Of a stretch of 64,000 nt of DNA, positions 1 through 61,097 are shown in pieces. The notes under the pieces are model-generated. The model ran no database searches. It worked only from the letters and a program-made list of their open reading frames with translations, and was not told the DNA's origin. This DNA comes from Squalus acanthias. Its lineage: Eukaryota. The stretch is taken from positions 15,376,001 through 15,440,000 of the forward strand of contig CM059447.1 in assembly GCA_030390025.1 (NCBI GenBank), written 5' to 3'. Each line of letters begins with the position of its first letter. The stretch's first letter is position 1. Both the position numbers and the translations under genes were made by a program.

Positions 1-910
1 ATGAGTGACCAAGACCTATTGGCTTAAAATGCAGGATGGGTAGAACACCCTAATATTCATAGGCTGAAGAATGATCTATCTTGAAAATAGAAGATTTTAT
101 TTAGTATTTTTTTGGTTAAGCTACTTGGTTCTGTGAAGGAATGTAATCATGTTAAGAAGAACTTCATGAAGTTGAATATGGTTTTGCAATTTTATTAGAT
201 AAACTCAAGGCATGTATATTTAATATTCTTTCAAAGATGGCAAAGGTGAGTAAGCGGGAGCATCTTAATTATTCATCCCGGTGTGGGCTAAATTTCTACT
301 GCACAACTCTTTGGGCCTACGTGAACGTGGACATGCCTCCTATCCCCAGAGCTTTGGTCCAGGCACGATGTGGCATCAGTGCACACTTAATAAATACTTT
401 TGACCACGGCCCATTGGGATGCGGCATTTGCTCTCCTTGAGGATACAGTTCAACATCACTGCAGACTTAATGAGATGTTTATCCAGGACAAAGAATTAGC
501 AAGGAATCTGTTGACAGACTAGGAGGAGGAGTTGTGATACAATATGACACATTTGATGTCAGTGGCCATCATTTCGTATGCCTCACTTAAGAGCAAAGTG
601 AAAAGGAATTAAGATAATACTGCCTGCAATACGAGGTTAAGATCCGAGAGTGAGCTCACACAGCAGGGACCTGTGAAAAGATGCTTAAAAATTTGACACT
701 AAAGAAATTGGCTTAAGTTGCCTGAAAGGGAGCTGGAGGCTGATTTTCAACAGACGTCAGGCTCACTCCAACTTCCAGTGAGCAGAATAAAAAAGGTAAA
801 AGATTTCCAATGCAAAAGCAAAATACTGCGGATGCTGGAAATCTGAAATTAAAACAGAAAATGCTGGAAATGCTCAGCAGGTCAGGCAGCATCTGTGGAG
901 ATGGAAACAG

Positions 911-947
911 AGTTAACGTTTCAGGTTGAGGACCTTTCGTCAGAACT
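911..947 (-). ncRNA. Minimal hammerhead ribozyme motif (core intact, one stem II mismatch)
   Basis: Reverse complement reads AGUU-CUGACGA-A-AGGUC-CUC-AACCU-GAAA-CG-UU-AACU. Confidence 0.7.
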
Positions 948-989
948 GTCGGTGGCCATCATTTCGTATGTCTCACTTACGAGAACTGG

Positions 990-1026
990 GGTTCTGTTGA
1001 AAGTTCATCGACCTGAAACGTTGACT
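990..1026 (+). ncRNA. Degenerate hammerhead motif (core CUGUUGA)
   Basis: ggttctgttgaaagttcatcgacctgaaacgttgact; core and stem II are mutated. Confidence 0.5.
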
Positions 1027-1683
1027 CTGTTTCTCTCTCCACAGATGCTGCCTGACCTGCTGAGCATTTCCAGCACTTTCTGTTTTTATTTATTATAAAC
1101 GATTTCCAATATTGGTTATACAACCGATCTAGGAAATCAGCACAAAACAGAACTGGCGCTCTCTTTTCTCTCTGTGGAGGTTTGCCCTCAGTGTTATATG
1201 TGAGGTGGGTTGTGGCAGTTGTTATAATTCAGGGCAAAAGAGAGATTCAGATTTTCAGCATCCACAGTATTTTGCTTTTGCTTTTGGTTTTTTTTCCCCA
1301 ACACTCATGCGGAATCTGTAGGCAGGTCCGTGCCTCCTACGAACCAAAATATAACTTTACGTGTAAAGTGAATGGGATAGTGTATCTCAGGGTTAAACTA
1401 CAATTTGTATTTATACATCAAATATACTTTAAACTTGTGCTGAAAACAAAATAATGCAGTATTCAACTTCTTAGAGTCCTTTTCCACGTCCTTTAACCGA
1501 GTTGTTTGGTACCAATATTTTGATGTTTCTTACGTGGAGCATACCTCAGCCTCAACAAATTTCTGCCCCAGTGCTGTGATGTGGAAATACAGTTCAAACA
1601 AATGGACCAAAGATATAGTGAAGAACTGCAGCAAATATACCAGGACCAGGGAGCTTCTAACACCTCAGATCAAAATCAGGCCT

Positions 1684-24020: not shown

Positions 24021-24607
24021 TGTCCTAAACCCATTCTTCTAAACTTCCTTCCTAACACAATACCTATTGTGTTGGGATAAGGGCAGGAGAAGGAAGGATG
24101 AGGCTCCTCTGTAGTCTGTACTGTGAAACTGAAGAGAGTGCTCTTCACAGAATCTACAATGAGCTGATACCCCTTGGTATTGGTAGTTTCAAATAGCCAG
24201 AGCACTGTTATATGTAACTGTGTAAAGTAAATGACATGTGTCATCTGAGGCGAGGGTTTCACCGGATATCCCTGATGGCTGGATGCCAGCGGTTGTTGAA
24301 ATGGTAAATGGTTGCCGATGGTAGGGCATTCACGGGATCCACCATCTTGTGTATGGCTGCGGACGAGCTAACCTGTTAGTCTACAGTTCAGCAATGAGCT
24401 ATTGCCATTTCACTGATGTTCGGGAAAGTCACAAATATGATCGTGGACTAACTGTGTACGTGCAAGATTTGAACGTGTGCAGTTCCTTTAAATTCCATTC
24501 AAGGCGTTGAAGCAACTGCACATGCCCAAATATTCCTCTGTTGCAGATTCCGGCCCACAATGTTAACAGGTCCAACTCAGCACCAAGAGGATTGGATTAG
24601 AGTACAG

Positions 24608-24760
24608 AAATAAAAACAGAAAATGCTGGAGATACTCAGCAGGTCAGGCAGCATCTGCAGAGAGAGAAACAGAGTTAACGTTTCAGGTCGATGACCTTTC
24701 GTCAGAACTGGACCTTTTCTGTTTTTATTTCAGATTTCCAGCATCTGCAGTATTTTCTTT
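24608..24760. mobile_element. Penelope-like family A inverted cassette
   Basis: Antisense arm with hammerhead joined to the sense terminus. TSD ttggattagagtacag (24592-24607) and ttggattatattacag (24761-24776), 14/16 match. Confidence 0.78.
24673..24709 (-). ncRNA. Minimal hammerhead ribozyme motif, intact
   Basis: Reverse complement reads AGUU-CUGACGA-A-AGGUC-AUC-GACCU-GAAA-CG-UU-AACU. Confidence 0.8.
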
Positions 24761-24799
24761 TTGGATTATATTACAGGCTGCTTCTATAATCTAAATGGG

Positions 24800-28952: not shown

Positions 28953-29285
28953 CATGGCAGCTGTCTTTCATTCTGCCAGCGCAATTTACACTTCATCTAG
29001 AGCCATCTTTTGTTTCTTAACCTGTCCCATTACCATCTCCTTTGGCCTTGAATATCTCTTTAATGTCTCTTAACCTCACCTGCCTTCTATCCTATCAGAG
29101 ACCTTCCCTTTTGTTCTTTCATCCCCTCCCCCCTTTCCCAGCCCCTACACTCGCTTAAAAATCTGTTCCATTTCCTGCTTTTTTCCAGTTCTGACGAAAG
29201 GTCATCGACCTGAAACGTTAACTCTGTTTCTCTCTCACAGATGCTGCCTGACCTGCTGAGTATCTCCAGCATTTTCTGTTCTTAT
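28953..29285 (+). mobile_element. Penelope-like family A 3' terminal (pLTR-like) fragment
   Basis: Colinear with 60766-61097 and contains a hammerhead motif. Confidence 0.8.
29187..29223 (+). ncRNA. Minimal hammerhead ribozyme motif, intact
   Basis: agtt-ctgacga-a-aggtc-atc-gacct-gaaa-cg-tt-aact, with palindromic AACGTT in place of stem III. Confidence 0.8.
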
Positions 29286-29864
29286 TGGAGATTAATTGAT
29301 GTTGATGAGGGAAATTTGTAGATTCTCAGGTGCTTGTAAATTTCTAGCTCCAGGTCAGAAGAACCAACATGATAAGAATTTTTTTTAACATACTTTTTGA
29401 TGCTCTGAAAGGTGACATCTGAAGTGAGACAGATCTCAATTGTTTTCCCCGAAGGCACTACCCGTGGGTAGTCTTGGATTTGAGGTTGCAATGTTTAGGC
29501 ACTAACCTAGCCTGTCCCTTTAAGGCCACTGTTCAGGTACTTCCTGTGGTGAAATACTCTAAATAGCTCCTGAAATCAATTATCGGCTAACCGCTGTTAG
29601 TAAAGGAAGTTTGCAAATTTATGGCTCCATATCAAACTTCACTCAACAACAGAAATTAACCTCCGCATGATGTGACTGCCTTTCTTTTTTATACTTCTGA
29701 CATTTTGAAATGTGGCATCTGATGGACTGGTCTCCAAACCTTTATATATATATAGATCAATAAGAAATTAGAAGTAACACACTGGAAGATCCTAGACAGG
29801 TCCTAAAACGCTCTTCTGTGTTTAATATTATATTTAAATGGTAAACATTTTTTAGAGCACTCAC

Positions 29865-35979: not shown

Positions 35980-36752
35980 GGGGTAAAAATTGAGTCGCGC
36001 CCCATTTGGGGCGCTAACCTCGCCGGGGCGCGACTTTTAGCGCCCCGAAAAAATTAGCGGCCCCGCGCCGGAACTTCAGTGGTTGCGCCCCAAGAGGGAA
36101 GCGGGGCGCAACTGGAAGCACCCCGCATCCCTCTTGGGGCGCTGCGAGTGAATATCCTGGCGCTACGTGCCGCAGCGCCACGCGCTGCGGCACGTCGCGC
36201 CGCGGTATTGCAGGCCTTCCTCCCCTTCTTAAAGGGGAGGGGCCTTGCGCAGCGCGAACCGGGGCCCAGCTGGGCCCCCAGGGATCGGGAGTGCCGGCAA
36301 AAGAGCCCGGCACTCAAGAGAAGTGCCGGGCTCTTGGAGCGCAGCCGGCACTTCACGGTGGGGGGGCTTCACGGGGGCCGGGGACAGCAACGGGGGCAGG
36401 TGCTGGCAGGCGGCCAGCAACAAAAATGGCCGCCTGCCACCTCCCCTTTAAATATCGCCGCCCCGGCCGCACGTACGCCCCCCTGAACCCGTCGGACATA
36501 GCGTCTGGCGGTAAATCAGGGGGCGCGACTGAAGATCACGGCCGGGGCGCGAGCGGGGCGCTGCGCACGGCGATGACGTCATCGCCGGCGGCGCAGCGCC
36601 ACAGGGCGCTACCGGCTGCCGCCGCCGCTAACCTCCCACTAAATTTTTCGGGAGGCGTGGGCGGCGCTGCGCCCGGGCGTTAGCTGCTTTACGCCCCATT
36701 AGCGCCCATTTAAGGCGCTAACGGGAGGCGCAAGCAGCTGAATTTTTCCCCC
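35980..36752. mobile_element. CpG-rich non-autonomous PIF/Harbinger-type element (773 bp)
   Basis: TIRs ggggtaaaaatt and aatttttccccc. 3-bp TSD CAA (35977-35979 and 36753-36755), which is provable because the host repeat reads gttatagtccaacag uninterrupted at 12684-12698. Confidence 0.85.
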
Positions 36753-36770
36753 CAACAGTTTTATTTGAAA

Positions 36771-36807
36771 TCACAAGCTTTCGGAGCGCTGCTCCTTCGT
36801 CAGGTGA
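36771..36807 (-). ncRNA. Minimal hammerhead ribozyme motif (family B), intact
   Basis: Reverse complement reads UCAC-CUGACGA-A-GGAGC-AGC-GCUCC-GAAA-GC-UU-GUGA, with palindromic AAGCUU. Confidence 0.8.
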
Positions 36808-36842
36808 CCTGACGAAGGAGCAGCCGCTCCGAAAGCTTGTGA
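36807..36842 (+). ncRNA. Hammerhead motif (family B), stem I clipped by the inversion junction
   Basis: ac-ctgacga-a-ggagc-agcc-gctcc-gaaa-gc-tt-gtga. Confidence 0.7.
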
Positions 36843-38045
36843 TTTCAAATAAAACTGTTGGACTATAACCTGGTGTTGTGCGACTTCTCACATTTGTCCA
36901 CCCCAGTCCAACACCGGCATCTCCACATCAGAGCAGAGACCAGGCACATCTAACCAGTGTAGGAGGGAGGGACCTTCGATGGTGACTCATACAGAGCTGT
37001 TCTCACTTCTCTCCTGTTCACTTCATTGTGCTTCTAAATGTTATTCATATTTGATTGTGTTAAATTCAATTGTAGAATGAAGTGAGTCAAACTTAGATAG
37101 CAACTGCACCTAGATCCTGCGCAACATGCAGTTACATACACAGGGAAGAGAAGATGTGCTTTTAATCCATGTCATGGGGGAGAGAGCTAATTGGTCTGCT
37201 TTCCTATGTTTCTTTGTGGCTAGTGTGGCAACATTCACTGTTGAGGCTGGCACCCAATCCCCTTTCTGAGCTGGTCTCTAACCATTGCATTACAGTGGTG
37301 CAAATTACTGGGTCTCCAGTTTTCCCTGGGTCCCCACGTGCTAAAAGGTACTGGCAAGTGCCGTCGTTGCGCAACACCACTTTATAGCTGCTGTTTGCAA
37401 AGTCCAGTTTAGACAAGTGAGGCAGAAGAAGGATGTGACAGCTTCACATTGAAATGTAGTGGTGGCCTTTACACATCTGATTATGTAATACAGAACTGAG
37501 TTCTGCCTCTCCCTACCTTCAGATTGAGGCCGCACCCAGATGTGTAAACATTCCTAACTCAGTGCACATGTCACTCAGGGTGCATTTGCTGTACTTTCAC
37601 TTTATCGTGAGCTGATAGTTTCCGATAACTCTACCAGGCCACAGTGCTGTGACTTAGAAGGGATGGGAACCGAATTATATTGTGAGTCATCAAAATTCTT
37701 ATGTCCATGAGTCATTAAAGGAACAGTGTCAGTAAGGTAAAGTCTCTTTTTATAAATATTTCATTTAATTTACAGGAGTGTGTGGTAATATAACAGATGA
37801 TTAGGGTGAAATTTCCTGCGGGGATGTAATTGAGAAGTTATGGCCATTTGTGCACCCATTTTGCCAATGCCTATTTGCACCCAAATTTCCTGCCAAACTC
37901 ATTAACATACACCAAAACATAACAATCAACATAAACAATCGGGGTTCGAGGAAAGCACCGAACTTGCTCCGCATATTCCATTTTTAAGCCTGGAAAATTA
38001 AAGTTTCAAGCCACCTAACTATCATTCACGCACATTAGGCACCGC

Positions 38046-49040: not shown

Positions 49041-49332
49041 AGTAAACCACTAATCAACTAACTCAGCACAGACTGGGGAGTGAACCTAGGAACTCGTGGT
49101 CTTGCACGGCTCAGTTACTCACGGGCTTTTACCGGCACAGTCCCTCTCCGGCTTCCTCTCACTAATGCCAGATTCAGTCTGCAGTAATTCCTCCATGATA
49201 AGTTATGCATTTATGTCTATTCCAGTCGTTCTCCAAAAGTATTGACAAGCCTGTGACCCACACTGCTCCATCCTCTACTGGACCAGGGAGCATGGCAGTA
49301 GGAGTAAATGGCTCCAATCGAATTTTCTTACT

Positions 49333-49783
49333 AAAATAAAAACAGAAAATGCTGGAAATACTCAGCAGATCAGGCAGCATCTGTAGAGAGAGAAACAGAG
49401 TTAACGTTTCAGGTCGATGACCCTTCGCCAGAACTGGAAAAGTTGGAGATGTAACAGGTTTTTAAGCAAGTGTAGGGGGAGGGGAGGAAAGAACAAAAGG
49501 GAAGGTCTGTGATAGGATGGAAGGCAGGAGAGATTAAGAAACAAAAGGGATGATGGTGCAAGGCAAAAGGAGATGGTAATGGGACAAGTTAAGAAACAAA
49601 AGATGACTCTTGATGAAGTGTAAATGGCACTGGCAGAATGATCAACAGCTGCCATGTGAGAGAGAGAAAAAAATGATAGGAGCAGAGGTTATGGTCTGAA
49701 ATTGTTGAACTCGATGTTGAGTCCAGAAGGCTGTAAAGTGCCGAATCAAAAGATGAGGTGCTGTTCCTCGAGCTTACGTTGAT
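49333..49783 (-). mobile_element. Penelope-like family A fragment: GIY-YIG C-terminus remnant, 3' region and mutated hammerhead
   Basis: Antisense QRKLEEQHLIF*FGTLQPSGLNIEFNNFRP*. Hammerhead at 49399-49435 has core CUGGCGA. Confidence 0.82.
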
Positions 49784-50837
49784 TTTTTTACTATTGTAAA
49801 ATTTTTACTATTGTAATGAACGTACCCCTGTGTTCATACTCAGTTGTTCTCCTGCTCTGTTTAACAAACTGCTGTTTAAATCAAGTTTAACATTCCATAA
49901 AGATTTACATGGAGAAAGTTGCCAATAAACACTTTCTCACAAGCTGTGCTTATAAGTGTGCCTGAGATCATGGCTGTAATTTTTCTGAATTGCAAAACAA
50001 TTAAAGGAGGATGATGCTGTAACATCGGCAGGGTGTGAGAGCTGGAACAGAGGATTCCACAATCTTCGAGGTCTATTGCGGACCTTCACCTGGAGCATAC
50101 TTTTCAGCAAATATTTGGACGCCACCTGCTATTTTGAAGTGCACAAGAGTACTTTAATAAAGCCGACACCCTAATACAAGAGAAACAAAAACTTGCCCTG
50201 TTCCTATAAAGCAATTCGTGATGTGTTCAAATGGTTTACCTATAAAAAAGCACCTAAATTTCCATGTACATAAATAACGCACACCAGACCAGCAAAATGT
50301 TTAGAATATTCCTACCGTTTGTAAACTGCTGACCATAATCAAAGAGCAACAAAGTCACTTCATCATGTTCCATCATAGTGTGTATCAGAAACCATTACTG
50401 GTAGTCATGTATCCTCTGATTCATTCAGTGCATTAACTCAAATGAATCAGCTATTACCTAACTGATATGCGTATAAATTGAATCTTGGCACTTACAAGAC
50501 TAGTAGCATCAACATTGTGAAATGTTCTCCCAATTAACCCACGTGACACGTGTAGAGACTGTGAGGTAGACTTTCCGTGGTGGTTGTGGATCAGGATGGG
50601 AAGTTGTGGTGGAGGTTTTCTCACCGACCAGAGTAGCACATTGGCTGACCCTGATGACCGCTGAACCTCATTAGCTATATACAGTGAACTGCCGTCAGGT
50701 CATTCACCAGTAACAGGCAGCTTGCAGCTTTGGGTATGGAATATCCAACCCTGAAATAGCTGTTTAAGGAGTGGATCTTTTTTTTTAACAAGCAAACACT
50801 TTTGGAAAGTTCTTCTACACTATTCTGAACTATTATT

Positions 50838-60584: not shown

Positions 60585-61097
60585 TCCATTGAAGATCAAT
60601 GTAAGCTCGAGGAACAGCACCTCATCTTTCGATTAGGCACTTTACAGCCTTCTGGACTCAACATAGAGTTCAACAATTTCAGATCATAATCTCGGCCCCT
60701 GTCATATATATTTTTTCCACACTTTTATTTTGGTTTTTTTGTTTGTGTTCTTTTCTTCTCTCCCACATGGCAGCTGTCTTTCATTCTGCCAGCGCAATTT
60801 ACACTTCATCTAGAGTCATCCTTTGTTTCTTAACCTGTCCCATTACCATCTCCTTTTGCCTTGACTATCTCTCAATGTCTCTTAGCCTCTCCTGCCTTCT
60901 ATCCCATCACAGACCTTCCCTTTTGTTCTTTCATCCCCTCCCCCCTTTCCCAGCTCCTACACTTGCTTAAAAATCTGTTCCATTTCCTGCTTTTTTCCAG
61001 TTCTGACAAAAGGTCATCGACCTGAAACGTTAACTCTGTTTCTCTCTTCACAGATGCTGCCTCACCTGCTGAATATCTCCAGCATTTTCTGTTTTTA
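60585..61097 (+). mobile_element. Penelope-like family A fragment: GIY-YIG C-terminus, 3' region and mutated hammerhead
   Basis: 60591-60689 encodes EDQCKLEEQHLIFRLGTLQPSGLNIEFNNFRS*. Hammerhead at 60999-61035 has core CUGACAA. Confidence 0.85.

Follow-up and report, generated by a model that had tools for sequence, protein, structure and literature searches.

RESULTS AND DISCUSSION

A Penelope-like insertion with a copy of its own flank

The window, that is, the whole stretch of 64,000 nucleotides of Squalus acanthias DNA analyzed here (contig CM059447.1, assembly GCA_030390025.1), contains near its left end a 5'-truncated Penelope-like insertion without the coding part, made up of a tail-bearing and a tail-less inverted arm enclosed by a target-site duplication identical at 14 of 15 positions (Table 1). 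Read on the minus strand, the insertion consists of the tail-less inverted arm, a spacer and the arm with the ~34-nt tail. The arms are complementary at 91 of 101 positions (846-946 and 991-1091), and the spacer between them (947-983) is a direct repeat of 557-593, identical at 34 of 37 positions and 390 bp away from start to start (E of ~2e-10 within the window). The donor of this 37-nt tract lies ~350 nt from the join and 218 bp from the end of the element. Microhomology bounds the copy on both sides (TG at 947-948, AG at 982-983), and the right join carries an extra piece of the element, with 982-988 repeating 942-948. The element is present once more at 1246-1284, as an independent copy made up of the tail alone, which starts 135 bp rightward of the cassette.

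Table 1. Coordinates of the features of the focal cassette and of its donor (positions in the window)
Feature	Position	Strand	Remarks
Donor of the captured piece	557..593	+	Unique DNA, 218 bp past the tail end of the element
Target-site duplication, tail-side copy	797..811	+	ATT at its start on the element sense strand; 14/15 against 1096-1110
Penelope-type tail, ~34 nt	812..846	-	Present in this arm only
Tail-bearing 5'-truncated pseudo-LTR arm	812..948	-	
Putative minimal type I hammerhead motif, left arm	943-911		Core intact; predicted cut between 915/914; identified by eye against PMC4209133
Captured 37-nt copy of 557-593	947..983	+	2-nt microhomology at each end (TG, AG)
Short element-derived filler	982..990	+	Repeats the left-arm end, 942-948
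Inverted arm without tail	991..1091	+	Hammerhead core damaged
Target-site duplication, second copy	1096..1110	+	

The original prediction had been made from the letters of the window, and its central claim, that the spacer matches unique-looking DNA 390 bp upstream at 34 of 37 positions, is confirmed. A 19-nt core common to spacer and donor has exactly two forward matches in the 3.71-Gb genome with up to one mismatch allowed, both of them here (the reversed-pattern control gave one match), and the region 520-640 matches itself alone in a search skipping very common words. The 37-mer is hence neither element consensus nor a high-copy repeat, two of the possibilities that had been named as fatal to the claim. 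Other details needed amendment: the 15-bp duplication does exist but is not perfect as implied, and the short TG microhomology given for the left join is accompanied by the AG at the other end and by the element piece 982-988, neither of which had been mentioned.

In principle, the same picture could stem from coincidence, from element consensus, from a repeat common to both places or from a misassembly. Among the contig pieces listed, none crosses the centre of the cassette, the short-read contigs being swamped over the arms. However, both outer joins are covered by short-read contigs: the left flank-to-tail join by contigs from two studies of one organism and also by contigs of a second species, and the right flank-to-arm join by one contig of run X1 (1067-1247). 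There are three mismatches between spacer and donor, and at one of these sites (position 561) the donor of the related species (run X19) has the base of the spacer, which is beyond what an assembler could invent and indicates that the donor, rather than the spacer, changed later there. Given also the unique core and more than 20 other loci with the same pattern and donors of their own, we regard an artefact or coincidence as highly improbable. No empty site was found for the focal insertion, the one other species compared having it too.

Element identity and the hammerhead motif

Judged from its sequence, the element appears to be an endonuclease-positive Penelope-like element, for which the label "Poseidon-type" is used here by anatomy only. 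A longer sister copy (L156) codes for a C-terminal GIY-YIG domain (PF01541) upstream of the terminal repeat, scoring 23.3 bits against a curated cut-off of 22.6, and the focal locus has the inverted 5'-truncated repeat, the 30- to 40-nt tail at one end and the target duplication of Penelope elements. Published Penelope pseudo-LTR units are likewise head-to-head 5'-truncated repeats with a one-end tail of 30 to 40 nt and a target duplication; they also contain a minimal hammerhead and have palindromes where the repeats meet (PMC3846280, PMC8557442, PMC4209133). We rejected an identity as a tandem non-LTR retrozyme, defined by head-to-tail tandem units with a hammerhead in each (10.64898/2026.07.22.740005), because the focal cassette is head-to-head.

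The original prediction spoke of hammerhead arms. By the criteria for a type I minimal hammerhead (core boxes, a 5' unpaired base in helix II, a palindromic helix III and a helix I of 4 bp), a putative ribozyme is visible by eye in the left arm, but the core in the right arm is damaged, no match was obtained in the window with Rfam at gathering score, and the hammerhead strand folded singly did no better than shuffles (z-score of -1.46). The focal join does coincide with the 5' edge of the hammerhead, as had been stated, and this edge is a truncation hot spot, with direct arms of 126 to 139 nt in 26 of 90 tail-bearing copies (133 to 135 nt in 10 of the 90, L103-L192). Of a role for ribozyme cleavage there is no sign. 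We rejected it as the cause of the join, as the predicted cut lies ~33 nt away and the direct-arm peak is at 126 to 139 nt, not at ~102 nt.

Arm position 30-32, the predicted cleavage triplet, is split by unrelated insertions, mostly beginning with a G run, in eight copies (L006, L010, L021, L023, L035, L042, L108 and L118); they resemble Harbinger-type DNA transposons. The hot spot itself falls on a CAG-terminated pyrimidine tract similar to a 3' splice site (946-950; sister copies at 29170-29190 and 60985-61002). It may be set by splicing or by an RNA 5' end, and in the Drosophila virilis Penelope the end of an intron is reported to be the 5' end of helix I (PMC4209133).

Local capture recurs across the genome

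Searches with exact patterns recovered 218 head-to-head cassettes with gaps of 10 to 40 nt and 98 with gaps of 34 to 64 nt (the sets overlap), and most of the spacers listed for them are continuations of the element or short stutters. Patterns disfavouring element continuation gave 40, 12 and 8 cassettes, all of which were retrieved, leaving 59 after one (L062) was moved to a second family. Non-element spacers of at least 15 nt occur in 39 of the 59, and for 15 of these 39 a significant donor lies no more than 1,350 bp away, significance meaning that at most one of the flanks of 93 other loci matches equally well, a null limited to those 93 flanks, with several donors being repeats themselves. 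For 3 of the 15, the donor is the flank immediately adjoining the element. Additional donors were found at 1,362 and 1,572 bp and at ~1.9 kb.

Counted over 24 hand-collected positives, some of them borderline, the donors are upstream direct in 10 cases, upstream inverted in 3, downstream direct in 6 and downstream inverted in 5 (L070, a microsatellite copy of the target site with a spurious best match, was left out). Their median distance is 335 bp, with an overall range of 0 to 1.9 kb on both flanks, and where the flank available reached ~3 kb or more (13 loci), the donor lies within 850 bp in 12.

A second hammerhead-like family behaves alike, since both long spacers tested in it are local (L208, 46/48; L062, score of 57), against highest null scores of 10 and 17. 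This family has 1,486 exact-pattern cassettes with gaps of 16 to 46 nt genome-wide; the first 15 listed have short, element-like spacers with no local donor, and the filter for non-element spacers retained one locus. Local capture is therefore recurrent, with about two dozen sister insertions like the focal one, and the expectation that mapping spacers across the genome would reveal an enrichment near the insertion, also in the second family, was borne out. One copy of the second family lies within the window (36752-36861) and has a near-perfect palindromic centre.

Local capture is rare and not the only source of fillers

Local capture recurs but is a rare by-product, and not all fillers arise from it. 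When the first 15 loci of each gap set (10 to 40 and 34 to 64 nt) were examined, 3 of 30 had a local donor, of which L025 passes the strict test and L004 and L005 are short. Among 90 tail-bearing copies picked regardless of their join, out of 664 (flanks of 1.5 to 2 kb unless extended; L113 and L122 are duplicates in the sample), there was one clear capture, L126 (64/70, ~1.9 kb away), and one borderline, L139. Eight long fillers (L185, L110, L159, L063, L087, L097, L060 and L099) have no donor within 5 to 15 kb. One of the eight is a high-copy repeat in the genome search, and the search with another orphan filler found only a 79% match elsewhere. Long fillers with no local donor also resemble parts of other repeats (L055/L099, L185 and L097). 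These data suggest that non-local long fillers come from other RNAs or from distant DNA.

The idea that the spacer is a "spacer-like record" of the insertion neighbourhood was thus right about the copy, which is real, and overstated in the rest: with one clear case in 90 the capture is a rare event, most spacers derive from the element, several long ones are non-local, and there is no sign of function. The captured piece is a scar, which also creates small local duplications.

The non-local fillers are relevant to the nature of the template. The reverse transcriptase of the element could have switched from the element RNA to a nascent transcript made at the target locus, and jumps to other RNAs predict what some long fillers are, non-local and in at least one case a high-copy repeat. 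Copies of 40 to 100 nt would suit a processive enzyme, and R2 insertions acquire extra RNA templates (PMC11371274). However, donors drop off within ~1 kb on both sides even at loci where 3 to 5 kb were searched, a transcript would offer far more distant sequence, and among the donors none was spliced, so that a local transcript as the template seems unlikely.

The copy is about as old as the insertion

Spacer and donor diverge at 40 of 736 positions (5.4%) and the two arms at 76 of 1274 (6.0%), local alignment having trimmed mismatched ends, which lowers the first of these values and can also inflate microhomology. Both divergences are correlated (Spearman 0.65, p = 0.017, n = 13), and at the focal cassette they amount to 3/37 and 10/101. 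Because spacer-donor divergence matches that between the arms, capture and insertion are of about the same age. This fits capture during integration, although on sequence age a repair shortly afterwards would look equal. The switch to nearby DNA at integration that had been proposed for the focal spacer thus agrees with the capture of local unique sequence and with its timing; for the enzyme, and for DNA or RNA as the template, there are candidates only.

How the two arms are joined

How Penelope-like inverted repeats form has been described as still undefined (PMC8557442). In 94 cassettes, the tail is found in one arm only in 87, in neither in 6 and in both in 1, and the outer end of the tail-less arm mostly equals the start of the tail. 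Rare variants coincide between partner arms 16 times against 2.0 expected, which points to the same source. Fold-back may operate at individual joins, but that every inverted arm arose by pure fold-back was rejected: four of the 94 cassettes have zero-loop palindromic centres, which fold-back cannot form, and among 34 unselected cases the inverted arm exceeds the direct one by more than 15 nt in 15, against 3 with the reverse relation, so that simple copying of the direct arm does not account for it. In two cassettes with different flanks, L040 and L084, which lie on separate contigs, the zero-loop centre is the same and falls at an element word that is its own reverse complement; this would fit either repeated independent joining or re-mobilisation of the cassette. 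Microhomology of at least 2 nt was present in 18 of 24 clean joins (out of 42), a share that the trimming mentioned above can inflate, against ~18% expected by a rough null. When priming side was compared with donor geometry, the side of the extra filler agreed with the prediction from resected DNA in only 7 of 11 cases.

The 37-base copy of the flank was probably made during integration, while two reverse-transcribed strands from both cut ends were being joined. The GIY-YIG endonuclease of the element would make a staggered cut of ~15 bp, after which the reverse transcript primed by one end would start at the tail site and that primed by the other end ~34 nt further in, both on the same source RNA. 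Both strands would often stop at the 5' edge of the hammerhead, and their single-stranded 3' ends would then seek microhomology, usually pairing together or copying a few bases of each other. Sometimes one 3' end would pair instead with exposed flank 0.1 to 1.9 kb off, copy 15 to 100 nt, release and rejoin. At the focal cassette, the tail-less arm would have copied ~8 nt of the end of the other arm and then, primed by AG, 37 nt of the flank, closing on TG.

The focal spacer might instead be the trace of a repair that took place after integration, if the newly inserted, near-perfect palindrome was extruded as a cruciform, suffered a central break and was mended with DNA copied from nearby templates, in which case the 7-nt repeat 942-948/982-988 would be a duplication at the break. 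Palindromes do undergo revision by breakage at the centre, and a 7-nt direct repeat flanking the insert, frequent asymmetry of the arms and an age signal that an early event would yield as well are all compatible with such a repair. However, perfect zero-loop palindromes of both families survive unrevised, L110 has filler at a join without an inverted arm, and two features of integration, the asymmetry of the tails and a tail-less arm whose outer end is fixed, already need a central join. We therefore consider repair after integration unlikely.

For the joining of two strands during integration, either the reverse transcriptase of the element or a host repair polymerase is a candidate for the enzyme that made the copy. 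The short element-derived stutters would fit polymerase theta, and the flank copies, being long and distant, fit poorly with its typical range. Tentatively, and with less confidence than in the joining itself, we propose a two-ended route in which one complex reverse-transcribes the same RNA from both cut ends at two fixed start sites and the telomerase-like reverse transcriptase then moves from one single-stranded DNA template to another, flank as far as 2 kb off among them, until the gap is sealed. If so, the inverted pseudo-LTR would be the repair join of two cDNAs and the fillers would map the opening of the target.

Comparison with other retroelements and with end-joining

The closest biochemical parallel is Poseidon PAc of the anole (Anolis carolinensis), which in vitro cuts and extends both strands, prefers ATT, has two start sites bracketing the tail and does not need hammerhead cleavage (PMC11167929). 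The presence of a tail in one arm only mirrors these start sites and the extension of two strands, but in vitro the start sites had no strand preference, unlike the one-tail rule found here (PMC11167929). As far as the accessible part of that study goes, the joining of the two products is left aside and no fillers are described (PMC11167929). The two-ended joining model could be tested with the existing anole protein.

Among Penelope elements, host DNA captured between pseudo-LTRs has been described in the rotifer Adineta vaga (PMC3846280). The portion of that report available does not link these captures to DNA flanking the insertion in question, as our analysis does, and a literature search covering few subscription papers retrieved no description of Penelope elements taking up flank DNA locally. 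The published explanation of the inversion is self-priming on the antisense template, whereas our data favour two primed ends joined in trans.

Templated insertions have been published for L1 and R2, and the capture by Penelope is a mechanistically informative variant of this known kind of junction scar. Somatic L1 insertions with local templates number 22 in ~3,600 solo-L1 insertions (10.1101/2024.08.27.596794), and three cases were found in a cell study (PMC11702581). Both L1 and the Penelope element build in nearby genomic DNA at microhomology joins, and L1 twin priming ends in end-joining (10.1101/2024.08.27.596794, PMC11702581). However, L1 templates are reported to lie typically within 15 bp of the site (10.1101/2024.08.27.596794, PMC11702581), compared with a median of ~335 bp (0 to 1.9 kb, both flanks) here, and twin-primed L1 halves are mostly non-overlapping, whereas both Penelope arms copy the same 100 nt. 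The snap-back of R2, in which the 3' end of the cDNA primes extra synthesis with itself as the template, or more rarely with target DNA close by, before joining, is similar to the joins described here, but it involves a single cDNA, without a pair of tail-bearing and tail-less arms (PMC11371274).

The templated insertions of polymerase theta (TINS) also share with these joins the direct and inverted local copies, the 2- to 6-nt microhomology and the repeated rounds, in a way that suits the short stutters (PMC7165422). Their templates are typically within 30 to 50 bp and the tracts rarely exceed 10 nt (PMC7165422); by these standards, the microhomology of at least 2 nt is present at our joins, but the distance of the template (~50 bp) and the length of the tract (<10 nt) are exceeded.

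With 218 and 1,486 exact-pattern matches in the two families, the genome holds hundreds to thousands of such joins. These joins speak for two primed ends that were joined in trans, and from the rare copies of flank one can gauge how far DNA is exposed on either side of the cut.

Other copies in the window

At 24607-24763 there is an inverted cassette without filler in which the tail-less arm covers ~85 nt absent from the tail-bearing arm. Three tail-less copies with longer bodies have no inverted partner nearby (28953-29293, 49331-49786 and 60592-61097), which suggests that the second start site can act alone. The last two of them extend back into the C-terminus of the endonuclease.
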